A stretch of 64,000 bases of DNA, taken from assembly GCF_965641715.1 (NCBI RefSeq), contig NZ_OZ282453.1. One strand, 5' to 3'. Both the position numbers and the translations under genes were made by a program. Shown piece by piece: positions 6,872-20,995 of the stretch (position 1 is its first letter; every line of letters begins with the position of its first letter). The notes under the pieces were generated by a model. It did not search any database. It saw nothing but the letters and a program-made list of their open reading frames with translations, and was not told the origin of the DNA. This stretch comes from Escherichia coli (GTDB lineage Bacteria > Pseudomonadota > Gammaproteobacteria > Enterobacterales > Enterobacteriaceae).

Positions 6872-8965
6872 TTAACCTCGGCTCACCGTTTTCGATTCCA
6901 TCCAATAAATGACCCGGTTGGATGTGGGCTGATCGCCAACAACTTTGCCATCTGCAGAGATTAGCTTCAGCTCTTTATTAGCCTCATCACCGAAGTAAAT
7001 CATGCGGTAGCGAAAATAACCGCCCCAGGGTTCGCGTCCACCCAGCGAACTTTGCATAAACCAGGCGCGGGAGTCGTGAACCTGGTCATCATAGAGAGCC
7101 AGTAATTCAGCGCAGGGCTGAGTACGCGTTCCCGTTCCCAGTGAATCAATAAAAAATTGTGGATAGAGTCCGTCTCCCATAGCCTTAATTTGCTGATATT
7201 CTTTTGCTTCATCATCGCCATTAATCAGATACACCGGATATTTAGGAATGACATCCACAAGAATCTGAATGGCTTTCTCCATGACGCTGCCGTTAATATC
7301 GCGCGTCCATCCTTTATAATCGCTCTGAAATTCTCGGGCTGCCTCTCGCAACTGATACTGAGCATTGGTTGGGTCAAGGATAGGAATGCCCTGATTACTT
7401 TCATCAAGTGTGCCATTCCCTTTCTGCTTGTTCGCCCGCTCTTTTTCAATATTTTCCATTTGTTCTTTACGCGCTTTAGCCTCTTTATCAAGTCCATCTT
7501 TATCCAGCTGTGGCGCCTTAATATAAAAAGGTTGCACAAGAAGGCTGTTATTCGCATAGCGACCGATACGCCAGGCGGTGATCCAGCCGATCTGATCGCT
7601 AATTGCGCTTTCAAGAACCTGGGCAAGTTGATAGGAGTGATAATCTTCCCTCGTATCAATCATTTCTTCTGTACCCTGCAAGGTGGTGTTCAGCAGCGTT
7701 TGTCGCCAGATGTTGAAGCGTTTTGTTAATGAATTAGCAATCGTAAATTCCTTTACGCTAGAAGGACTCATAATTCGCAGAGGCGACACACCTTTTATTA
7801 ATGGAGTAACAAATTTAGAATAAACAGCAAGTGGTGCTCCTGAATCAAATGCAGCAAGATACATATCATGCAGTGCTATCTGAGAAAGAATTTCGCCTGA
7901 GTCACCACAGGACTTCCCCTGATCGCGAACGGGATAGCCACCACCGACATCAGAGTGCATCCCCGGATAGATAATTTCCTCTGCATTTAAAGGATAATTT
8001 CCGTCTGGACGACGGATTGAATCCAGCGGAAAGCACAGCCGCTGCTCATGCGCGGCAACGAAGTGGCGGCAGCATTTAATCAGGCCGGGAAACTGCCTCT
8101 CATCAGGGAGTTGCTGAGTACTATCGGCCCATCCCATATGACCGGCAGCGCCCGGTAAAACATGCGCCGCCCCCACAGAAGCTACGGTATCCAGCAGCCC
8201 CAAAAACTCAATACTGACAGCTAACCCGGCCAGCATCACCTGTTGCTCCTGCGGGCAAGCTAACTGAGTCAACCAGTTAACAAAAGTTCGTGCTTCCGCT
8301 GCGCCACGGGAAAATCCGTAGATAAACAGCTTTACGTTTAGCAGGCGCGGACTGGCTTGCTCTAACAGTCCCTGTAATTTTTCCAGGTAGGGGTTAATCA
8401 CATTGCGACGATTCACTTCACCAGTCATAGGCCAGGGAGCGCGCATAAGAGGAATGTGCTCTTTTGCCACATTATCATCCAGTCGCTTATGGGAAGGGTC
8501 AATGGAATAGCTCAGGGCATCCACGAGGCGTAATAATGCCCAATTAATTCGATCTTCACCACCAGTAGCGAACTCCAGCCCGCTGTTGCTGTAATCCATT
8601 TCACCTATCTTGGGAAATGGTGTGCCTACACCCGGTATATAGTAGTTAAAATATCCCTGTTCTTCTGCGTTCTGATAGGTCGTATGAAACAGTTTGGCAA
8701 TATTGATTGGGTGTCCAGGAGTGTCATTATATTCATTATTATTTGTACCATCAAAAAACAGACTAATATGCAGACTTTGATTACACGTAAAGCCAATTCT
8801 AAATCCAGCCTGTTTACTACAGTTGGTTTTGTGCTCTTCTGTTTTATTGATTTGTTTTAGGTAGTTCGCGTTTACCTGCGCTTCAGATAATATTAATCGC
8901 CCATTTTCAGGAAACGCTGGGGGGGCATAACACGGAAAAGCCAGACCACTTATTTCGCTGGACAT
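6872..8965 (-). CDS. T6SS phospholipase effector candidate, Tle1-like (DUF2235 alpha/beta hydrolase, 697 aa)
   Basis: GxSxG nucleophile motif in KLFIYGFSRGAAEARTFVNWL; last gene of a vgrG-remnant/DUF4123 cargo module; family assignment from motif and context only. Confidence 0.55.
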   Translation of the reverse strand: MSSEISGLAFPCYAPPAFPENGRLILSEAQVNANYLKQINKTEEHKTNCSKQAGFRIGFTCNQSLHISLFFDGTNNNEYNDTPGHPINIAKLFHTTYQNAEEQGYFNYYIPGVGTPFPKIGEMDYSNSGLEFATGGEDRINWALLRLVDALSYSIDPSHKRLDDNVAKEHIPLMRAPWPMTGEVNRRNVINPYLEKLQGLLEQASPRLLNVKLFIYGFSRGAAEARTFVNWLTQLACPQEQQVMLAGLAVSIEFLGLLDTVASVGAAHVLPGAAGHMGWADSTQQLPDERQFPGLIKCCRHFVAAHEQRLCFPLDSIRRPDGNYPLNAEEIIYPGMHSDVGGGYPVRDQGKSCGDSGEILSQIALHDMYLAAFDSGAPLAVYSKFVTPLIKGVSPLRIMSPSSVKEFTIANSLTKRFNIWRQTLLNTTLQGTEEMIDTREDYHSYQLAQVLESAISDQIGWITAWRIGRYANNSLLVQPFYIKAPQLDKDGLDKEAKARKEQMENIEKERANKQKGNGTLDESNQGIPILDPTNAQYQLREAAREFQSDYKGWTRDINGSVMEKAIQILVDVIPKYPVYLINGDDEAKEYQQIKAMGDGLYPQFFIDSLGTGTRTQPCAELLALYDDQVHDSRAWFMQSSLGGREPWGGYFRYRMIYFGDEANKELKLISADGKVVGDQPTSNRVIYWMESKTVSRG

Positions 8966-10594: not shown

Positions 10595-11051
10595 TTATCC
10601 ACGAGGCGCAAAAGCGGCGGCGGCTTCCTGCGCCCTTTTCAGGCACTCCTTACACACCGATTTTTCTGGCGCTTCCTCACCCTCATCGTTGTTATCATTC
10701 TGATCGGACGATGCATTACTATCATTTTGCTCAGCCGCTAAACTTTTATCATCTGCCAGCGCTTTCAGAACCGCCGGTTGCAGCGTCGGCACCGGCGTTC
10801 CCGGACTACCGCCGCTATTGAGATTGATTTTCGGCCCGACGATGTCCACGCCCCCTGAATGGATGACCACAAACGAACCGCCCACCTTCAGGCTTATCCG
10901 GCTGCTGCTCTCCAGCACCACATCGCCCTCCACCTTTAACCACGCCACCGCAGTCAATGGCATCACCGGTTCTGGCGGTAGGTTTATCGTCGATAAAGGC
11001 GGAAGAGGTGTTTCCGGCTCTTAAGAAATATTTACGCACATGCACCAGCAT
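10595..11051 (-). pseudogene. Remnant fusing the 3' end of a PAAR gene to the 3' tail of a vgrG gene (internal deletion)
   Basis: One frame encodes FIDDKPTARTGDAIDCGGVV (PAAR C-terminus, compare PAAR 15133..15417); the adjacent frame encodes LKVEGDVVLESSSRISLKVGGSFVVIHSGGVDIVGPKINLNSGG (VgrG tail, compare vgrG2) followed by an acidic linker. Confidence 0.6.
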
Positions 11052-11082: not shown

Positions 11083-11859
11083 TCAATAAGGTTGCTTTAC
11101 CAAGCTTCCATCGATATTGATGGAAAATTCATTAGACCTAATATGAACAGAATGTTGCTCATCATCTTTATCTAATATTTGATTAACAAAAAAAAACGTA
11201 TTTTTATCAAATTCATAATTATCACATCCCTCTCCACTAAATGATATAGCTCTAAAATCATATTCATTACATGAGTATCTTTTCATCAAAATAGAGAGGA
11301 ATGTTTCATTAATTGATTTTAATACAAACCATTTTCTCCTAACAAGTTTGTAGTTTAATGTTTTTATATGATAATTATTTAAACTGGGGAGAAATGAATG
11401 CATATCATTCAATTTTACATCAAAAGATATTTTTTTACCTGCCGTAATTTCCACCCATCGGCTCAAATTCAAATCAAGCTCAAAGGGACAAAAGCCTCCT
11501 AGATAGTCTAAGCTAATATTTCCTGATGTAATCAAGAATTCGTCATCACACAAAGCATCAAATACATCTCCATTTCCTTTTTGGAAGTTCTTTGGATAAT
11601 ATATTCTGGGGAGAAAATACGATTTAGTACTACTGTTATAAAAAGTTATAGTAGCTAAAATATTTTCAGCATGTGGCTTAACCACCAATTTAACAACAAC
11701 ATCATTTGTTAATTCATTACTTATATTTTCCTCTGGCGCTAAATTATGGCTAAGATAAATAATTGGTTTCCCATTGTCACTTCTTCGTTCAAAACCGAAT
11801 CTGTATTTTTTTACAAAAAGATTCTCATTATCTATTGCAATTGCAATAGATAATGGCAA
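11083..11859 (-). CDS. Hypothetical protein, candidate immunity protein for the upstream metallopeptidase-like effector; N-terminal signal peptide is out of frame
   Basis: Body ORF starts at TTG 11859; a 31-codon ORF from ATG 11923 (one nt after the effector stop) encodes MKRLAFYNLNYVVLMVFFSLFFAIIYCNCNR in the other frame; the two frames would join if one base were removed from the homopolymer tract. Confidence 0.45.
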   Translation of the reverse strand: MPLSIAIAIDNENLFVKKYRFGFERRSDNGKPIIYLSHNLAPEENISNELTNDVVVKLVVKPHAENILATITFYNSSTKSYFLPRIYYPKNFQKGNGDVFDALCDDEFLITSGNISLDYLGGFCPFELDLNLSRWVEITAGKKISFDVKLNDMHSFLPSLNNYHIKTLNYKLVRRKWFVLKSINETFLSILMKRYSCNEYDFRAISFSGEGCDNYEFDKNTFFFVNQILDKDDEQHSVHIRSNEFSINIDGSLVKQPY

Positions 11860-11924
11860 AAAACAAAGAAAAAAAAACCATCAGTACAACATAATTTAGA
11901 TTATAGAAAGCCAACCTCTTCATC

Positions 11925-12728
11925 TTATTTCCCCGTCAACTCATCAAAACATTTTTCTATCTCTTTTATTTTATCCTCTACTTTTTTTGCTAACATATTC
12001 TCATCTTGAGCTTCAATATCTTCATCATTTAATTTTATATAAAAATATCTTTCAACATTATATGCATTCTCAAATAACTGATCTTTACGCAATGTAACCA
12101 GATCATTAGCCACTGAAACATGTTTCTCATAGCTAACTTCATCCTTATTACTTGTTGCGAACTTATTAATACCCGTATAATCCTGAGTCCACATACCACC
12201 TTTTTGATTGTCACCCCAATACCAAAATATATGGGACATTTCATGGCAAAGTGTACTTACATGAGAGTCTCTACCTGTAACCGACTGTTTTATACCATGT
12301 CTGTATTCAAAATGCGCTCCGATATTTACAATGTAAGGAGGATCAAGATGTGGACTAATAAAAGCAGCAAATTCATTGCAGTTCGTATAATCTTTATAGC
12401 TTTCGATCGTCAAACCATTTGCAATCGTCATTATTCGTCTGATGCCATCCATTATGAATAGTCTCGCTTGCATTCGTTTCCCAGTATCTTCCCCAACTTT
12501 TCTGATTTTTATAATGTCCTCGCCTTTAAGGCCAAAAACTTTAATAAAATCTCGTTGTTGTTCCCCCTCCCATGACATAATATCATCTGCTCTTTTCAAT
12601 AAAACCATTTTCTGTGCTTTACAAGCCTTACTCATCATTATTTTAAATTTATTTGTAATTTTTTGCGGTACTACACATACTTGCGACTCGGGTTGTGAAG
12701 TCCCACTAGTATTATTATTCCCTGCCAT
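11925..12728 (-). CDS. HExxH zinc-metallopeptidase-like T6SS effector candidate (268 aa)
   Basis: HEMSH motif followed by WTQDYTG (loosely aspzincin-like); start ATG at 12728 (MAGNNNTSG) overlaps the vgrG2 stop; the longer ORF 11925..13103 is not used because it overlaps vgrG2. Confidence 0.55.
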   Translation of the reverse strand: MAGNNNTSGTSQPESQVCVVPQKITNKFKIMMSKACKAQKMVLLKRADDIMSWEGEQQRDFIKVFGLKGEDIIKIRKVGEDTGKRMQARLFIMDGIRRIMTIANGLTIESYKDYTNCNEFAAFISPHLDPPYIVNIGAHFEYRHGIKQSVTGRDSHVSTLCHEMSHIFWYWGDNQKGGMWTQDYTGINKFATSNKDEVSYEKHVSVANDLVTLRKDQLFENAYNVERYFYIKLNDEDIEAQDENMLAKKVEDKIKEIEKCFDELTGK

Positions 12729-15114
12729 AATGCCCCTCCGGCTCAATATAAAAAGCATCCGAAAATAACAATTGGACTTTAATTTCCTGTGCTGTATCTG
12801 TATAAAATATTTCTGTATATCCCTCTCTGTCTGTTTCACCACGCGTCTGTGTGCCATCCTCAAAAAAGGCAATATACTGCGTCTCTGAATACGGTATCCC
12901 GTCATCGTCCGTAAAATGGAACTGGAGGGTATATTTTTCAGGATCATCTTCATCGTCACCGCCATCACCTCCTCCGTCACTCCCTGCGGGATTGCCACTA
13001 TCCTCTCCGGAGTCATCACTGCCATCATCACTGCTCTCATCCTCCGGAGCCTCCAGCACCGCCGGCTGCATCGTCCCCACCGGTGTCCCCGCACTGCCCC
13101 CACCGTTCAGGTTTATCTTCGGCCCGGCAATATCCACTCCGCCCGGCTGAATGACGATAAACGAGCCACCCACCTTCAGGCTTATCCGGCTGCTGCTCTC
13201 CAGCACGATATCCCCGTCCACTTTTATCCCCAGCGCGCCACTCACCTTCTCCGCCAGGTCCCCCTTCACCTCCAGGCTGTGCTTCCCCTCCACCAGGCTG
13301 ATGTGGTTACCCGTCGTCTTATGCTCCTGCTTCCCTTTCACCGTCACCCTACGGTCATTTCTGACGTACAGACCGTCATCGTGACTCACGCTCACCGTCC
13401 GGTCATTTGTCACCTTCAGCGTCTGGTCGTTACGTACCGTTATGCTCCGGTCGTTCGCCACCGTGATACTCTGGTCGTGGCCTCCTTCTTTTCTGGTCCC
13501 GACCTCAACCGTCTGCCCCTTCACCACCGTTATCTTCTGGTCGTTACCAATGGTCTCCGTATGGTCATGTTTCACATCCGTTGTCCGGTCGTTGAGCACC
13601 TCCGTATCCATGTTCTTCTGCGCATGGATATACACCTGCTCATTACTGGTGGCGTCCTCAAAGCGCAACTCGTTAAATCCGCTTCCTTTATAGGTCTTCG
13701 ACCGTATCGTCATCTGCGTCTTCGTCCCCGGCAGGCTCCCCGGCGAACGGTTGTCCTCATGGTACGTCCGGCCCATGACCAGCGGCTGGTCCGGGTCTCC
13801 GTTCAGGAAGTCAACAATCACCTCCTGACCCACCCGCGGTATCGCCAGGTTACCAAACCCCGGCCCCGCCCACGCCTGTGATACCCGCACCCAGCATGAA
13901 CTCGCCTCCGTCATCCCGTGATAACGGTCCCAGTGGAACTTCACCCGTACCCGGCCATGTTCGTCGCAGAATATCTCCTCACCCTTCGGCCCGGTGACAA
14001 TGGCGCTCTGCGGCCCGTCCACCTTCGGTTTGCTTTGCAGCCGTGGACGCCACGTCCGGTCCGCCGGTATCACCTCTAACTGATTTCCCAGCGTGGTTCC
14101 TCTCCCCTGGCTGCCGTGCAGCGCCTGCGGCTGGCTTCCTGACAGTATGCTCTGTACCACCTGCCATTCACGGTTCAGCATCTTCTGCGGATGCCCCGTC
14201 AGCGTAAACCGCGTTCCCGGCCACAGCCTCGGCGAATTACTCTGCCCTGTGGCCTTTTCCGCATCACTGCGCAGGCTCTCCATCTGGTACAGCGTGAAAT
14301 CCTTGCCGTGCTGCTCATCCTTGAACCTTCCCGGATAATCAAATATCTCGTACTGCGCCAGCTGTCCGTTCAGGTTCTCACCCTGCTGCTCATACATCCC
14401 CGGCCAGTCCGGCACCTTAAACGTGTAATCCTGGCTCTGCACCGACGACGGGCGGACATGCGCCTCATAACGGAACATACTGAGACACTCCGTCTCCGCT
14501 CCTGCCGATGTGTCCGGGTTAAACGGAAGCTCTCCCGCCTGTGACAGCCCCGCCACATCGTCGCACAGCGTCAGCTTCTGCTCCGGACTGTCCGCCGCAA
14601 ACCGCTCAAAGAAGAAAATTCCTTCTTCCGCCCACAGCCGAGCCAGAAACGCCAGGTCGCTCTCCCCGTACTGGACACAGAACTCCCGCGCCGGATGGTC
14701 TTCATAAAACAGCGGAGTCCACTCCGTGACGCCGTTCTCGTTCAGTAACGTGGCCGATATCGTCCGGATATCCTGCTGCTGAAAAATACGAAAGTTCTGC
14801 CGCAGCCCGCACCGCCATAACGGCGGCTCAATACGCAGGTGATAACGCATCTGCCAGCCGTTGTTCTCCTGCATGCCAAAGCCCGCCACCACGCCGGTGA
14901 CATAACGCTGCGCCACCGCGCCCTGCCAGATGGCCAGCGTCGCCTTCTTCTCCAGCAGCATCTCCGCCGTCTGCATAAAAGAGTCGCTGGCAACATCCAC
15001 ACTCATCACAAACGGATAAGACTGGTTCTGGATTAACCTGAAATTCACCACTGCAAAGGTGTCCGGCTCCTGGCCGTCAATCTCCAGCGTAAAGCGCAGA
15101 CCGTTTAAGGACAT
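12715..15114 (-). CDS. vgrG: VgrG spike protein with C-terminal extension (799 aa)
   Basis: N-terminal 480 aa identical to the vgrG at 19037..20995; gp27/gp5-like repeats (VKGDLAEKVSG..., ISLKVGGSF...); acidic D/E/G/S linker and an extra ~60 aa C-terminal domain. Confidence 0.9.
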   Translation of the reverse strand: MSLNGLRFTLEIDGQEPDTFAVVNFRLIQNQSYPFVMSVDVASDSFMQTAEMLLEKKATLAIWQGAVAQRYVTGVVAGFGMQENNGWQMRYHLRIEPPLWRCGLRQNFRIFQQQDIRTISATLLNENGVTEWTPLFYEDHPAREFCVQYGESDLAFLARLWAEEGIFFFERFAADSPEQKLTLCDDVAGLSQAGELPFNPDTSAGAETECLSMFRYEAHVRPSSVQSQDYTFKVPDWPGMYEQQGENLNGQLAQYEIFDYPGRFKDEQHGKDFTLYQMESLRSDAEKATGQSNSPRLWPGTRFTLTGHPQKMLNREWQVVQSILSGSQPQALHGSQGRGTTLGNQLEVIPADRTWRPRLQSKPKVDGPQSAIVTGPKGEEIFCDEHGRVRVKFHWDRYHGMTEASSCWVRVSQAWAGPGFGNLAIPRVGQEVIVDFLNGDPDQPLVMGRTYHEDNRSPGSLPGTKTQMTIRSKTYKGSGFNELRFEDATSNEQVYIHAQKNMDTEVLNDRTTDVKHDHTETIGNDQKITVVKGQTVEVGTRKEGGHDQSITVANDRSITVRNDQTLKVTNDRTVSVSHDDGLYVRNDRRVTVKGKQEHKTTGNHISLVEGKHSLEVKGDLAEKVSGALGIKVDGDIVLESSSRISLKVGGSFIVIQPGGVDIAGPKINLNGGGSAGTPVGTMQPAVLEAPEDESSDDGSDDSGEDSGNPAGSDGGGDGGDDEDDPEKYTLQFHFTDDDGIPYSETQYIAFFEDGTQTRGETDREGYTEIFYTDTAQEIKVQLLFSDAFYIEPEGHYGRE

Positions 15115-15132
15115 AAATACCTCTCAGACATA

Positions 15133-15417
15133 TCAGCCTATATTTACCGTACCGCCACCAATGACCACACCACCACAGTCGATGGCATCACCGGTTCTGG
15201 CGGCGGGCAGGCCGTCAATAAAGACGGTTGAAGAACCTCTGGCGATTTTACGGGGATGAGGTGGATGCTTCGGTTTAGCATGCGGCGTCAGCGGATCTCC
15301 CTGGCGAGCAGCAGGTAATCCATCAATAAATACCGTGGATGAAGCCGCAATGATGACTGTCTCACGGTAGCCATCATGCTGAGTACCTTTGTCGTTTAAT
15401 CTGGCAGCTAAAGGCAT
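15133..15417 (-). CDS. PAAR-domain spike tip protein (94 aa)
   Basis: Duplicated SSTVFIDGLPAAR(Q/T)GD motifs and C-terminal AIDCGGVVIGGG; located directly upstream of vgrG2. Confidence 0.8.
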   Translation of the reverse strand: MPLAARLNDKGTQHDGYRETVIIAASSTVFIDGLPAARQGDPLTPHAKPKHPPHPRKIARGSSTVFIDGLPAARTGDAIDCGGVVIGGGTVNIG

Positions 15418-15527
15418 AATTCCTCCTGTTCAGAATATCAGCGACAAAAAATTTAAAAAACGGTAAGGTGCTTAACTCAGCAATAATCACCTTACCGGAC
15501 ATCCTGATTTGTAGCCCAACAGGTTAA

Positions 15528-16538
15528 TCAAGTAACAGGGATAAACTGACCATCAATCAGCGAAAATACCGGAGCGTAATACCCCATACGCTCTTCACCA
15601 CTTTCATCTGTAAAACGGTAAGTCAGTGGGGAATACGTTGGCATTGATTTATTATATAATTGCACCATACGCCCATTATTCATAACCCGGACGGCATAAT
15701 CGTTCCACCTGATAGGCAGTATTTTGGCTTTTCCACCCTCAAGGTTATCTTTCGGAAAGTGGGAGAGTAATATGTCATCCTCAGAGTCACCGGTTGTGGC
15801 TGACCATGCCTTCAGCGCCTCTGTGTTATATAACTTAAGACGTGCTCTGTCCCCGCTGTTAATAATTGTTGCCATTTCGGTATAGGTGGCTTTTAACTTC
15901 CGTAGCTGCTCGTCGCTTCCGGTATAGGGGGTTGCCCGCGTCCAGGCCCATTCAGGAAGCCCCGTCACCGTGACTTTTTGTGTAAACTGATACACCTTCA
16001 TCCCTTTCGGAAAATAGGTTTCATCAAAATAATCTGGATCTATAAATCCTGGCTCCGCCTGCTCTGCCAGGATCTCTTTCCTGATAACGGGATGCACGCT
16101 GTCTGACCGGGCTTCAGGTATGCCCTGCTGGTTGATGGTCACTTTTATCGAAGAAAGCAGGGTTTCTTCCTGTTTAATAAAACGAACCAAATCCAGGCTG
16201 CACCCTGCTTTTTGGAAAAAACGCCCCCGTTCTTCCGTACTGGCAGGCTTGTCAGAAAACCATCCTAACGCCCCGATTTCCAGACTGATTTCATTTTCTC
16301 CATTCGCCATCAGCATCATGGCATTGGTGCTGGATATGGCCCCGGTGGAATCACCATTCTCTCGCCATGCGTTCATTCGGTTACTGAAGCCGAGGACACC
16401 GTTGGTTTTGATGGCACAATATGATTCCTCAATATTAAACTTACTGCGGATTTTTTGTGGATTTTCACCCGAGTACAATCCTGCTCCCATAATACCTCCT
16501 GACAGTAAAATAACCGATATTAAATGTTTTACCTTCAT
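15528..16538 (-). CDS. Secreted hypothetical protein (336 aa), candidate immunity protein for the 523 aa effector
   Basis: N-terminal signal/anchor MKVKHLISVILLSGGIMGAGLYSG; immediately downstream of the effector candidate. Confidence 0.45.
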   Translation of the reverse strand: MKVKHLISVILLSGGIMGAGLYSGENPQKIRSKFNIEESYCAIKTNGVLGFSNRMNAWRENGDSTGAISSTNAMMLMANGENEISLEIGALGWFSDKPASTEERGRFFQKAGCSLDLVRFIKQEETLLSSIKVTINQQGIPEARSDSVHPVIRKEILAEQAEPGFIDPDYFDETYFPKGMKVYQFTQKVTVTGLPEWAWTRATPYTGSDEQLRKLKATYTEMATIINSGDRARLKLYNTEALKAWSATTGDSEDDILLSHFPKDNLEGGKAKILPIRWNDYAVRVMNNGRMVQLYNKSMPTYSPLTYRFTDESGEERMGYYAPVFSLIDGQFIPVT

Positions 16539-16604
16539 AATTATTTTCTCTTAAAAGGAAAAGACTCTCATTATATTGAGTGATTTTAATTGCTGTAATA
16601 TCAC

Positions 16605-18176
16605 TTAATAATCCATGCCTATTGTCCACGTTGTCACTGGCTTCGGCGGTATTACTTTTTTCTCTACCGTGCGTTCTTTACCGTATAAATTAACCCGCAA
16701 TGGTGAATCTTTTATCTCCATAGGATCACATAACTGCCACTCAACGGTATCTTTCTTCTCGGGTTTCTCACTCTTTTCTTTCCCCTTTCCCTTCCCTTTA
16801 CTTTCACCATAAGATACATCCGCCTTAAATTCGAACTTTCCTTTAATGCCGTCATGAAATAATGCCAGGTCCAGTCCGTCATCATGTGAATCGAATCCAA
16901 AGCCAGCTTTCGCCTCTATAGAAGCGGTCGCTTCTGCGGTCAGTTGTACAACAAAAACATTCGCCTCAAACGTCGCACTCACCACACCTTTTAAACCGAG
17001 CTTGATGTTACTTTCCTTTACATTAAACTCCCATTTTTTATCCTTTTCAGCGTATACTGCGCCAAGATCAAGATTAATCTCCGCTGAAATCTCGATATAG
17101 CATTCAACACTGGCTCCGTTTTTACGGAGATATTCACGACATCTGTTGACCAATGACTCGACTTTACAGTATGCACATATAAATGAAATAATATCGAATC
17201 TGAACGACGCTTCAAAAAATGGGGCACCAAACAAACCATAAAAATGACAGGGGCCATCCTGGATATCGGTATATTGATAGGCATACGATATACCCAGTTT
17301 AACGGGTTCTATTTTTGCACTGAACAATGCATATTTGCGCGTACCATTATTATTGTCAGGATCTGGCGCAAAATATTTATTGACATTCTTGACCAGAGAG
17401 TCAATTCTTCCTATCTGTTCCAGTTGCTTTGTTTGTCGAAGTTTTTTTATCTCTTTTTCATATTCACTTGTGTGTTCAACATTAGCTATTTTTACGCCAA
17501 AATCGACAGTCAGGGAAGTCTTGTTTATCCACTCAAACTCAGCAGTGGTATTTGTCCAGCCGCTACGGAGTTTATTTTTATCCCTGGGCTTGGTGTTCTC
17601 CATTGCGTCCCTGGCTTTTATTCTTTCGTCACGCCGCTCTTTTACTGTTCGCGTCTGTTTTGATGACGAAATCTCATAGCTGAACCCTGTAGTAAACCTA
17701 ATTTCCATTGTAGGATAAACATCAATTTCAACATAATTGCCACATTCGTAACAACTGTCAATTCTGACTGAATAATGGGCAGGTTCATAATGATTCTTAA
17801 GTGGAGAGGATATTGCCCCCAAATAATCCCATGGTACGCGAAATGTACCCATAGCAATTATTTCACCTTCAGACAAGTTATCATCCAAAGTGACCTTATT
17901 AGGTATTCCGAAAGGTTGCAGTATCTTATGATTATTTTCTGATTCTTCCTCTAACCATGCCTCATGTGTTCCACTTTTATCGCACTGGTAGGTAATGGTA
18001 ATTATACCATCACATCCGGAACCATCATCCAGTAGCTTAAAACGCGCCACTCCTTCTTTTGACCAGAAATGTTTCTCGCCGGCCTCTGGAAAATCACTAA
18101 TAACATCAAAAATACATGGATCAGGTATGCCGCATTCCACACAGGGCTTTCCGGCTGTCGAAGATGGAGATGTCAT
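16605..18176 (-). CDS. Unassigned T6SS effector candidate (523 aa), DUF4123-adaptor dependent
   Basis: Follows vgrG1 and a DUF4123 adaptor; no catalytic motif recognised; lysine-rich low-complexity stretch (KGKGKGKEKSEKPEKK) near the C-terminus. Confidence 0.5.
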   Translation of the reverse strand: MTSPSSTAGKPCVECGIPDPCIFDVISDFPEAGEKHFWSKEGVARFKLLDDGSGCDGIITITYQCDKSGTHEAWLEEESENNHKILQPFGIPNKVTLDDNLSEGEIIAMGTFRVPWDYLGAISSPLKNHYEPAHYSVRIDSCYECGNYVEIDVYPTMEIRFTTGFSYEISSSKQTRTVKERRDERIKARDAMENTKPRDKNKLRSGWTNTTAEFEWINKTSLTVDFGVKIANVEHTSEYEKEIKKLRQTKQLEQIGRIDSLVKNVNKYFAPDPDNNNGTRKYALFSAKIEPVKLGISYAYQYTDIQDGPCHFYGLFGAPFFEASFRFDIISFICAYCKVESLVNRCREYLRKNGASVECYIEISAEINLDLGAVYAEKDKKWEFNVKESNIKLGLKGVVSATFEANVFVVQLTAEATASIEAKAGFGFDSHDDGLDLALFHDGIKGKFEFKADVSYGESKGKGKGKEKSEKPEKKDTVEWQLCDPMEIKDSPLRVNLYGKERTVEKKVIPPKPVTTWTIGMDY

Positions 18177-18197
18177 ATAATCTATCCGTTTGTCTTT

Positions 18198-19040
18198 TTA
18201 TTGCGGGATAAATCCCAGTTCCTGTTGTGCAAGTTCATGTACCCGAATATGTCCCGGGTATGACTGATTGCTGAGTTGTTCATACCAGTCATCCGGAATA
18301 TATCTGAGATCGATTATATTTTTTTTCAGTAATATAAGCGTCATTGTTCTGACGGAACGATCATCTGCTATATTTAATGACTGGCAAAAAGAGAAATAAT
18401 CTTCTGCCAGAATTCGGGATGATTCAGCTTTTGATAAATCATCCCATCCGTCTTTATCTACATTTTCTTCGATAAATGCAGATAATATATCAAGATAATT
18501 ATCCCGTGCCTTTCGTTCCAGTTGGCTATATTGTCTGTAACTCAGCGTCAGTTGTGATGGCCGTTCTGCCCTTATATTCATAGTTTCTGCGGGACGGACG
18601 GAAGAAAAATTATCCTCACGACATTCTTCACCATAGCGGGTACTTAGCTGTCTGACGGGGCTGATAAAAGAAAGAAGCTGGCGGGGGGTCAGAACTTCCG
18701 CTAATACCCATATATTCCGGGGATCATAAAATCGCATGAGAACAGGTTTCTCCTGTTCGGGGATCATAACCCACAGATAACGTCTGAAGTGTTGCTGTAG
18801 CTCACGTATGGATGACTCAGAAGTAAGATATATTCCCCACGGCGACGCCTTATCACTCAGCCATGCTTCAACTTCCGGAACAACCTCCACGAGATAAGGG
18901 GCCAGCGCGACCAGATCCGGTTGTATGGGTTCTGCATACAGACAACAGTGCGGGGGATTCACCTCGTTCAGAAAATCCAGCAATCCTTCCTCCACAGCGC
19001 CATCCACAATGGCGTACTGCACGGGTGCCGTTTCCATCAC
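18198..19040 (-). CDS. DUF4123-family T6SS effector adaptor/chaperone
   Basis: YAIVDGA near the N-terminus and LMRFYDPRNIWVL in the middle; 4 nt overlap with the vgrG1 stop. Confidence 0.65.
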   Translation of the reverse strand: MMETAPVQYAIVDGAVEEGLLDFLNEVNPPHCCLYAEPIQPDLVALAPYLVEVVPEVEAWLSDKASPWGIYLTSESSIRELQQHFRRYLWVMIPEQEKPVLMRFYDPRNIWVLAEVLTPRQLLSFISPVRQLSTRYGEECREDNFSSVRPAETMNIRAERPSQLTLSYRQYSQLERKARDNYLDILSAFIEENVDKDGWDDLSKAESSRILAEDYFSFCQSLNIADDRSVRTMTLILLKKNIIDLRYIPDDWYEQLSNQSYPGHIRVHELAQQELGFIPQ

Positions 19041-20995
19041 TTATCCTCCTTCGGACAATGCGACACGAACATCGAACCACTTCCGGCTGCGGCTTTCAGG
19101 ATCACCGGGCGCATCGGCAGGATCACATCCCCCGGACTGCCCCCGCCGTTAAGATTGATTTTCGCGCCCTTAATATCCACGCCGCCGGAATGGATCACCA
19201 CAAATGAACCGCCCACCCGCAGACTGATTTTGCTGTCGCTCTGTAAAACAATATCGCCCTGTACGCTGATACCCAGCGCGCCGCTTATTTTCTGTGCCAG
19301 ATCGCCTTTCACCTCCAGTCCCTGATTGCCCTCTGTCAGGCTGACGTGGTCTTTGGTGGTTTTATGGTCCTGTTTACCTTCAACCGTCACTTTCCGGTCA
19401 TTTGCCACCACCAGGGATTCATCATGCCCGATGCTGACCGTCCGGTCATAGTTGACCCGCTTATCCTTGCTGTTCAGCACAACGACCTGCATATTTTTCT
19501 GTGCGTGCAGATAAATTTCTTCCTTGTCCGTGGCGTCCTCAAACCGCAGTTCGTTAAATCCGCTTCCTTTATAGGTCTTTGACCGTATCGTCATCTGCGT
19601 CTTCGTCCCCGGCAGACTCCCCGGCGAACGGTTGTCCTCATGGTATGTCCGGCCCATGATTATCGGCTGGTCCGGGTCTCCGTTCAGGAAGTCAACAATC
19701 ACCTCCTGACCCACCCGCGGTATCGCCAGGTTACCGAACCCCGGCCCCGCCCACGCCTGCGATACCCGCACCCAGCATGAACTCGCCTCCGTCATCCCGT
19801 GATAACGGTCCCAGTGGAACTTCACCCGTACCCGGCCATGTTCGTCGCAGAATATCTCCTCACCCTTCGGCCCGGTCACAATGGCACTCTGCGGCCCGTC
19901 CACCTTCGGTTTGCTTTGCAGCCGTGGACGCCACGTCCGGTCTGCCGGTATCACCTCTAACTGATTTCCCAGCGTGGTTCCCCTCCCCTGGCTGCCGTGC
20001 AGCGCCTGCGGCTGGCTTCCTGACAGTATGCTCTGTACCACCTGCCATTCACGGTTCAGCATCTTCTGCGGATGCCCCGTCAGCGTAAACCGCGTTCCCG
20101 GCCACAGCCTCGGCGAATTACTCTGCCCTGTGGCCTTTTCCGCATCACTGCGCAGGCTCTCCATCTGGTACAGCGTGAAATCCTTGCCGTGCTGCTCATC
20201 CTTGAACCTTCCCGGATAATCAAATATCTCATACTGCGCCAGCTGTCCGTTCAGGTTCTCACCCTGCTGCTCATACATCCCCGGCCAGTCCGGCACCTTA
20301 AACGTGTAATCCTGGCTCTGCACCGACGACGGGCGGACATACGCCTCATAACGGAACATACTGACACACTCTGTCTCCGCTCCTGCCGATGTGTCCGGGT
20401 TAAACGGAAGCTCTCCCGCCTGTGACAGCCCCGCCACATCGTCGCACAGCGTCAGCTTCTGCTCCGGACTGTCCGCCGCAAACCGCTCAAAGAAGAAAAT
20501 TCCCTCCTCCGCCCACAGCCGCGCCAGAAACGCCAGGTCCGACTCCCCGTACTGCACACAGAACTCCCGCGCCGGATGGTCCTCATAAAACAGCGGCGTC
20601 CACTCCGTGACGCCGTTCTCGTTCAGTAACGTGGCCGATATCGTCCGGATATCCTGCTGCTGGAAGATACGGAAGTTCTGCCGCAGCCCGCACCGCCATA
20701 ACGGCGGCTCAATACGCAGGTGATAACGCATCTGCCAGCCATTGTTCTCCTGCATACCAAAACCCGCCACCACGCCGGTGACATAACGCTGCGCCACCGC
20801 GCCCTGCCAGATGGTCAGCGTCGCCTTCTTCTCCAGCAGCATCTCCGCCGTCTGCATAAAAGAGTCGCTGGCAACATCCACACTCATCACAAACGGATAT
20901 GACTGGTTCTGGATTAACCTGAAATTCACCACTGCAAAGGTGTCCGGCTCCTGGCCGTCAATCTCCAGCGTAAAGCGCAGACCGTTTAAGGACAT
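19037..20995 (-). CDS. vgrG: VgrG spike protein (652 aa, no C-terminal extension)
   Basis: Full-length VgrG architecture; first ~480 aa identical to vgrG2, diverging in the C-terminal third. Confidence 0.9.
   Translation of the reverse strand: MSLNGLRFTLEIDGQEPDTFAVVNFRLIQNQSYPFVMSVDVASDSFMQTAEMLLEKKATLTIWQGAVAQRYVTGVVAGFGMQENNGWQMRYHLRIEPPLWRCGLRQNFRIFQQQDIRTISATLLNENGVTEWTPLFYEDHPAREFCVQYGESDLAFLARLWAEEGIFFFERFAADSPEQKLTLCDDVAGLSQAGELPFNPDTSAGAETECVSMFRYEAYVRPSSVQSQDYTFKVPDWPGMYEQQGENLNGQLAQYEIFDYPGRFKDEQHGKDFTLYQMESLRSDAEKATGQSNSPRLWPGTRFTLTGHPQKMLNREWQVVQSILSGSQPQALHGSQGRGTTLGNQLEVIPADRTWRPRLQSKPKVDGPQSAIVTGPKGEEIFCDEHGRVRVKFHWDRYHGMTEASSCWVRVSQAWAGPGFGNLAIPRVGQEVIVDFLNGDPDQPIIMGRTYHEDNRSPGSLPGTKTQMTIRSKTYKGSGFNELRFEDATDKEEIYLHAQKNMQVVVLNSKDKRVNYDRTVSIGHDESLVVANDRKVTVEGKQDHKTTKDHVSLTEGNQGLEVKGDLAQKISGALGISVQGDIVLQSDSKISLRVGGSFVVIHSGGVDIKGAKINLNGGGSPGDVILPMRPVILKAAAGSGSMFVSHCPKEDK

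Follow-up and report, generated by a model that had tools for sequence, protein, structure and literature searches.

Two described systems are close to the locus treated here. In the Tpe/Tpi pairs, represented by the VgrG2b C-terminal domain with PA0261 of P. aeruginosa and by Tpe1-Tpi1 of A. baylyi, a VgrG-associated HExxH zinc-peptidase toxin is followed by the gene of an immunity protein with conserved cysteines and an export signal at its N-terminus, and PA0261 without its signal peptide gives no protection from the periplasmic VgrG2b metallopeptidase (PMC6899460). In the VgrG/DUF2345/M35/immunity locus of E. coli PAR (AKO63_2953-2956), the M35 toxin kills E. coli and the product of the next gene neutralises it (PMC10673891). 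A similar arrangement is present in a stretch of 64,000 nucleotides (nt) from Escherichia coli (RefSeq assembly GCF_965641715.1, contig NZ_OZ282453.1), called the window throughout, which is a type VI secretion system 1 (T6SS-1) region. On its minus strand, genes for PAAR, VgrG, an M35-like effector and a putative immunity protein are followed by a vgrG 3' fragment, Tla1, Tli1a and Tle1. The immunity gene is out of frame at a run of nine T residues within its signal peptide. The explanation fitting best, which is held with fair confidence, is that slipped-strand mispairing truly added one base (+1) to an immunity gene undergoing decay and prone to such hotspot mutations; the allele would be loss-of-function or hypomorphic, probably leaky, and not a programmed switch.

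Comparison with the known systems revealed likeness in arrangement and differences in detail. The order PAAR-vgrG-effector-immunity and the conserved adjacency of the last two genes point to a T6SS immunity gene. The effector is encoded by a separate gene of 267 amino acids (aa) and is not a VgrG fusion as in the Tpe/Tpi pairs, and PA0261 and Tpi1 are likened to the immunity family by shared traits, the export signal and the conserved cysteines. A structure of the VgrG2b C-terminal domain exists, and searches of PDB sequences with the effector gave no match to VgrG2b (phmmer E<=1, profile E<=10). With the E. coli PAR locus, compared by description (PMC10673891), the window shares a vgrG island with a toxin named M35 and a putative antidote encoded by the next gene; there the DUF2345 part is a separate gene, whereas the window VgrG is a single open reading frame (ORF) of 799 aa.

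The lesion can be read directly from the minus strand, to which the T lengths of tracts 1 and 2 refer. The stop codon of the effector gene is separated by one nt from the ATG at 11923..11921 (TAA G ATG), which opens a 31-codon ORF with its end at 11828 and the product MKRLAFYNLNYVVLMVFFSLFFAIIYCNCNR. Residues 1-18 of this product match exactly those at the N-terminus of the intact protein WP_105458168.1 (279 aa). The ORF enters the T9 run, tract 1, in the codons GTT TTT TTT TCT, passes the T6 run in TTG TTT TTT GCC and closes with TAA. With eight T residues in tract 1 the gene is in frame, with seven or nine it is not. Removal of one T from T9 yields MKRLAFYNLNYVVLMVFFLCFLPLSIAIAIDNEN..., the exact N-terminus of RefSeq WP_105458168.1 (279 aa), which is found in T8 strains. 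This relationship between the short ORF and the gene body exceeds chance and is confirmed by intact orthologues. The original prediction had described a signal-peptide-like 31-codon ORF, the T9 and T6 runs and a 258-codon body in the +1 frame, all of which were reproduced in the sequence at the same coordinates. Its proposals that loss of one T from T9 fuses both ORFs and that T8 is the intact state were borne out, the latter by the intact 279-aa T8 alleles, and the T6 run as an alternative route to fusion was discarded, since this run is invariant (Table 1). That the body might be translated on its own, starting at the TTG, was considered and rejected, because the upstream sequence is T-rich and lacks a purine-rich Shine-Dalgarno sequence.

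Table 1 Positions of the immunity gene, its tracts and the neighbouring genes in the window
Feature	Position	Strand	Remarks
31-codon ORF	11828..11923	-	Signal-peptide N-terminal (n-) and hydrophobic (h-) region (MKRLAFYNLNYVVLMVFF), then 13 out-of-frame codons and stop
Tract 1, T9	11869..11877	-	A9 on the + strand; codons V16-F17-F18 of the signal-peptide h-region
T6 run	11858..11863	-	Not the lesion site; T6 in 22/22 copies examined
Immunity-gene body	11083..11859	-	258 codons, TTG start, +1 frame; covers the mature domain (~22-279 in the numbering of the intact protein)
Tract 2, T9	11188..11196	-	Codons F243-F244-F245, in frame in the window
Inverted repeat	11826..11855	-	Perfect, 13 bp with 4-nt loop (CATTATCTATTGC AATT GCAATAGATAATG); in the codons for PLSIAIAIDNE; tract 1 lies 13 nt upstream
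Effector gene	11925..12728	-	267-aa HExxH (M35/aspzincin-like) metallopeptidase, intact, identical to A30 WP_047624962.1
vgrG	12715..15114	-	VgrG spike, 799 aa; 3' end overlaps effector start
PAAR protein gene	15133..15417	-	Upstream of vgrG; annotated PAAR in PapRG-04-4
vgrG 3' fragment	10595..10966	-	Downstream of the immunity gene; marks the junction to the older Tla1-Tli1-Tle1 module

A second run of T residues, tract 2, is variable as well. It is T9 and in frame in the window, and a T8 allele at this position specifies a 249-aa protein without the conserved C-terminal strands, which are two confident beta-strands in the AlphaFold2 (AF2) model. The locus was detected at >=99.5% identity in 12 of 5,426 complete E. 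coli genomes. Designated by the lengths of tract 1 and tract 2, the alleles are T8/T9 in A30, 33F4, 32F4, 33E and PapRG-04-4, the five of the twelve genomes in which the intact 279-aa form, WP_105458168.1, is annotated; T8/T8, specifying the C-terminally truncated form of 249 aa, in ECNB21-M121, JX21CE8, 23CRST027 and 23CRST031; and T7/T8, combining both lesions, in FDAARGOS_943, FDAARGOS_944 and 2018-05-2CC. The original prediction had suggested comparing tract lengths across related genomes; T7 and T8 were found elsewhere, and T9/T9, with the signal peptide out of frame, in the window only.

A wider view was obtained from a collection of 15 billion proteins, in which contigs were counted for listed members only. 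The cluster table assigns about 96 contigs to the 279-aa form, about 120 to the 249-aa form and 12 to 258-aa forms; for the latter, index look-ups gave 24 and 2 contigs. The DNA behind the 258-aa forms (L010-L021) is T7/T9 on two backgrounds of single-nucleotide polymorphisms (SNPs). Most public alleles of the immunity gene are disrupted, and T8 in tract 2 is present in about half of all public alleles from E. coli. Further variants are T8 on a CAA background (P0010) and an in-frame 6-nt deletion in the IAIAIA repeat (P0014). The window is SNP-identical to A30 over 2.1 kb, and this single background holds T8/T9, T9/T9 and T8/T8. T7 occurs on at least four SNP backgrounds, and all four tract combinations are present. 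Gapped-pattern scans of genome and metagenome contigs, allowing for any tract length, found nothing.

Homopolymer lesions are also present in more distant members of the family. Distant homologues with 47-54% identity have an in-frame signal peptide, the full C-terminus and many invariant residues past position 250, and the Salmonella homologue contains an in-frame T8 in its signal peptide; T8/T9 is therefore taken to be ancestral. A homologue of 54% identity (L025, Logan SRR26188682, 1183-1250) has its signal peptide out of frame at a T10 run, the in-frame length being T9; this run occupies the equivalent position of the h-region, and the gene stands next to an intact effector homologue. A paralogue of extraintestinal pathogenic E. 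coli (ExPEC), commoner than the window gene and located after a PAAR-VgrG-M35 set of the UTI89_C1677 type, belongs to the same immunity family (hhalign probability 99.96%). Two of its copies, in the complete genomes CP026491.1 (L037, 4851-5570) and CP025251.1 (L038, 4880-5634), differ by three 1-nt homopolymer indels, A8/A7 at signal-peptide codon 5, A8/A7 in the middle of the gene and T5/T6 near the 3' end. Both copies of the immunity gene appear incomplete, and in each genome they stand beside an intact effector gene.

No Pfam or NCBIfam model matches the immunity protein. A word-indexed search placed the family in four 90% clusters, and an exhaustive profile search, counted in representatives at 50% identity, yielded 83, of which 72 had E<1e-10. 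In AFDB50 the family is wholly confined to Enterobacterales and labelled "uncharacterized". Of 53 family representatives, 43 begin with a strongly hydrophobic segment and have an AxA-like site after it, in agreement with the earlier designation of the short ORF as a signal peptide, as is the N-terminal helix of residues 5-26 in the AF2 model. Two representatives apparently devoid of a signal peptide, P0029 and P0056, were considered as further frameshifts and rejected; their starts are called late and the signal peptide is in frame upstream. The restored signal peptide of the window consists of M-K-R, a hydrophobic core (2.96 in a 12-residue Kyte-Doolittle window) and, by a heuristic assignment, A27-I28-A29 in front of I30. 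In this reading it conforms to Sec-type substrates of signal peptidase I, and homologues end in ALA|N or TIA|R. A lipoprotein, which might have been suspected from Cys20, was rejected, as there is no lipobox. Conserved in at least 90% of sequences are C125, C145 and C218, and among close relatives C233 is invariant, too.

The AF2 model of the immunity protein (predicted local distance difference test, pLDDT, 84.6) shows a beta-rich core after the N-terminal helix. By two independent methods its fold is similar to the pro-enzyme of AsaP1, an M35 aspzincin (PDB 2x3a/b/c), and to the B. subtilis proteinase inhibitor BsuPI (3isy), with sequence identities to these of 10-13% only. M35 catalytic domains such as 1g12 are missing from both lists of structure matches, and the other matches are all-beta sandwiches of about 115 residues; the match is therefore probably to the inhibitory pro-domain of AsaP1. 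A beta-sandwich of the AsaP1 pro-domain/BsuPI protease-inhibitor type is thus a well-supported prediction for the mature domain. In contrast to the AsaP1 pro-enzyme, inhibitor and protease would be specified here by separate genes and the inhibitor would be exported alone. Searching PDB sequences with the profile of the immunity family gave spurious hemocyanin matches only. The protease-inhibitor fold, the position directly after a VgrG-linked HExxH effector and the adjacency kept in Salmonella and L025 all agree with the original proposal that the body is an immunity-type gene.

The effector, named "peptidase M35" by RefSeq/NCBI, belongs to a small family of nine clusters, in which HEMSH and GGMWTQDYT are invariant; M35 peptidases are marked by HExxH and, downstream, an Asp ligand within a GTxDxxYG-like motif. 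It matches Pfam Aspzincin_M35 weakly (E=0.0022), and its best PDB profile matches are M35 enzymes at non-significant values (E 0.3-1.3); neither phmmer nor the profile search gave a significant match among PDB sequences, and the predicted structure (pLDDT 53) was too poor for a fold search. Effector and immunity gene are adjacent in Salmonella (L022), in L025 and in the paralogous ExPEC locus, and in a further homologous locus (L024) an intact immunity gene stands beside a truncated effector gene. Lesions of the effector gene, which is intact in the window, were noted in other strains: a 1-nt deletion in the A7 run corresponding to 11982-11988, resulting in 249 aa (L020/L021), a 1-nt deletion at 12045 (2018-05-2CC) and a change of the start codon from ATG to ATA (L013). 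Elsewhere in the window, a vgrG-linked extra module not present in A30 occupies 15124-19529 and comprises PAAR and ORFs of 336, 523 and 280 aa; a second vgrG-like ORF at 19037-20995 belongs to this module. At the 5' end of tle1, in APPA codons, a run of seven G on the + strand (C7 on the coding strand) at 8919-8925 has six residues in ECNB21-M121, and the Tle1 coding sequence annotated there is shorter, in line with the difference of one base.

In reporter constructs, and thus in another sequence context, slippage of E. coli RNA polymerase at T8 rescued +1 reporters by deletion of one U to about 10%, rising with length of the run and with no rescue at poly(A), and -1 reporters were rescued by insertion to about 5% at T7 and 10% at T8 (PMC6260861). 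Baranov et al. (2005, PMC1088944) described as "pseudo-pseudogenes" a class in which a frameshift lengthens an A/T run from eight to nine and slippage during transcription rescues the product. The window allele resembles this class in that an 8-nt A/T run is extended to nine and intact orthologues consist of a single ORF, and rescue would require the loss of one U or the gain of two. Since a T9 run on the sense strand is prone to slippage by E. coli RNA polymerase, the T9 allele is probably leaky, and by the same analogy the tract alleles in general, T9 included, are probably hypomorphs and not nulls. Leaky alleles could reconcile intact toxins with "broken" antidotes. The original prediction had overlooked this likely rescue at T9, along with the second variable tract (11188-11196) and the recurrence of the lesions across E. 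coli. The inverted repeat downstream of tract 1 corresponds to a hairpin, which forms in the minimum-free-energy fold of the RNA, and none of 2000 composition shuffles of the gene reached a stem of 13 bp. It was detected in all E. coli alleles examined and is not present in the Salmonella, L024 and L025 homologues. Candidate roles are an mRNA hairpin, a promoter of replication slippage, or a by-product of the ATTGCA tandem repeat.

Several observations weigh against the favoured explanation of a real insertion in a decaying gene. The immunity role and the periplasmic toxicity of the effector are supported by analogy to described systems (PMC10673891, PMC6899460), and the slippage rates stem from the reporters mentioned above. 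All four gametes are seen for some SNP pairs, and the tract homoplasy may thus stem in part from recombination instead of repeated mutation. ECNB21-M121 has an apparently intact T6SS and effector together with a 249-aa allele, which is awkward for an essential immunity function unless the system is silent or enough protection comes from truncated or leaky forms. The remaining observations concern the ninth T itself. T9 in tract 1 was detected in none of the 12 complete genomes and in none of the 12 contigs specifying 258-aa forms (L010-L021), an exact look-up of the 31-aa peptide specific to T9 returned no record, and the SNP-identical haplotype of A30 has T8. The strain could then truly possess T8 and an intact 279-aa gene, the ninth T being miscalled, and it would add to this suspicion that nine-base runs are the longest and most error-prone of the window and that miscalls demonstrably entered the finished genome of A30. 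Such an artefact appears unlikely, though, if the rest of the window is considered. Relative to A30, T9 is the sole frame-changing coding indel across 59.6 kb. Three homopolymer differences to A30 (NZ_CP028745.1), at 53525, 54091 and 55205, lie in 23S rRNA and tRNA-Ala genes, in which the C4-C6 runs of the window have functional lengths (ARAGORN: 76-nt tRNA-Ala). All other comparable runs of at least seven, including C8, A8, T8 and the second T9, agree with at least one independent genome. Because many laboratories have independently assembled genomes in which tract-length alleles of the immunity gene are common, a real change is a priori far likelier than an isolated miscall, and the extra T is considered a real mutation with good confidence. 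As to A30 itself, homopolymers of its finished genome are called 1 nt too short in 23S rRNA and at the tRNA-Ala 5' end, and its tssH contains an internal stop; finished genomes should be used with caution as a standard for homopolymer lengths.

If the T is real, the poly-T could still be maintained as a contingency switch, turning export of the immunity protein on and off reversibly and at high frequency. Such phase variation is known from genes of Neisseria, Haemophilus and Campylobacter, where a homopolymer in the 5' coding region sets the frame and varies in length among isolates. In these respects the immunity gene is similar: a tract in the 5' coding part toggles the frame, on and off states occur among near-identical strains and change faster than any SNP within the 2.1 kb, and the independent homologue L025 is likewise off by +1 at the equivalent site. 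The run, however, is short and of A/T type, and its presence is explained by codon composition. TTT accounts for 80% of Phe codons in the gene, both runs arise from FF/FFF motifs, and permutation of synonymous codons gave probabilities of 0.84 for at least one run of eight or more T and of 0.32 for at least two; in the whole 64 kb, two T9 runs compare with 1.37 expected (standard deviation 1.59), and 32 of 100 shuffles reached two. In the L024 homologue TTC codons interrupt the tract. Sets of clonal isolates have one state each (33F4, 32F4 and 33E; 23CRST027 and 23CRST031), so no switching within a clone was seen in this small sample. In mismatch-repair-proficient E. coli, A/T runs of seven to nine mutate far more slowly than classical contingency loci. 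Many alleles contain a second inactivating indel or an effector lesion, which a switch could not reverse, and off states are also found beside broken T6SS genes, resembling decay. Among carriers of the locus, IS21 is inserted in tssC of FDAARGOS_943, tssH of A30 contains a stop, and the core cluster is missing from PapRG-04-4. In the window, a VasL-domain T6SS gene at 40171-41529 (+) has an in-frame premature stop, W383*, at 41314-41316 (IKTVTW to IKTVT*, codon ~383 of 452), and the T6SS of the strain may be impaired; other tss ORFs have their usual lengths. A phase-variable switch is thus regarded as very improbable, and the pattern favours a mutational hotspot in a decaying accessory module. 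Even less probability is given to programmed recoding, in which the cell would exploit the out-of-frame arrangement, by polymerase slippage at T9 or by hairpin-stimulated frameshifting of the ribosome, to keep the exported immunity protein at a low, fixed dose. The slippage-prone T9, the highly non-random stem-loop after the tracts and the zero-frame heptamer U_UUU_UUC of T7 alleles, where a -1 shift would result in the exact wild-type protein, speak for it. But T8, which is simply in frame, is both ancestral and widespread, T9 would need a shift of +1 (or -2) whereas hairpin-stimulated sites give -1, the spacer to the hairpin is 12-13 nt instead of the usual 5-9 nt, and hairpin and tract are not conserved in the Salmonella, L024 and L025 homologues. 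A looser version, improbable as well, if slightly less so than the switch, is that the gene is kept dimmable and is not just decaying. The two poly-T tracts, together with the hairpin after the first of them, would permit polymerase slippage (T9, T8) or -1 frameshifting (T7) to provide a low, tunable dose of exported antidote, with replication slippage shifting lineages among dose states; if true, it would explain why intact M35 toxins are found so frequently beside "broken" immunity genes in E. coli, at the window locus and in the ExPEC paralogue. Of the three causes offered by the original prediction, the pseudogenised or hypomorphic slipped-strand allele fits best, the phase-variable switch found no positive support, and a sequencing error retains a minor probability.

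The preferred explanation, a slipped-strand insertion in a decaying immunity gene, can be put as follows. The gene product would be a Sec-exported periplasmic protein conferring immunity against the adjacent, VgrG-delivered M35-like metallopeptidase toxin, and its mature domain, a disulfide-bearing beta-sandwich resembling protease-inhibitor modules, would probably block the active site of the toxin. Slipped-strand mispairing would have added one T to the T8 run encoding Val-Phe-Phe in the core of the signal peptide, so that standard decoding of the T9 allele would produce the 31-residue peptide only. Because the mature domain is left without a ribosome-binding site or export signal of its own, the allele is expected to be loss-of-function or strongly hypomorphic, for which the loss of the PA0261 signal peptide provides a functional precedent (PMC6899460). 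A minority of T9 transcripts, about 10% if the reporter values apply, would lose one U and restore the full-length precursor. The T9 allele would then be one of several recurrent homopolymer-indel alleles of an AT-rich accessory gene under relaxed or fluctuating selection.

For annotation, the two ORFs should be replaced by a single entry, a frameshifted and perhaps leaky allele of the gene for an exported protein of 279 aa, and public entries of a 258-aa "hypothetical protein" represent the same artefact, derived from T7 alleles. The frameshift as such is routine and is outranked in interest by two results obtained along with it, a family with a propeptide-like fold and the breakage of its genes at homopolymers beside intact toxins. 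An immunity family of Enterobacterales without Pfam or NCBIfam model is repeatedly broken in this way next to toxins that remain intact, and how strains with such a pair escape self-intoxication becomes a testable question. The fold match suggests that the toxin-antidote pair resembles a split pro-M35 zymogen, in which the inhibitory pro-domain would serve as the antidote, and it would thereby provide a concrete model for binding.

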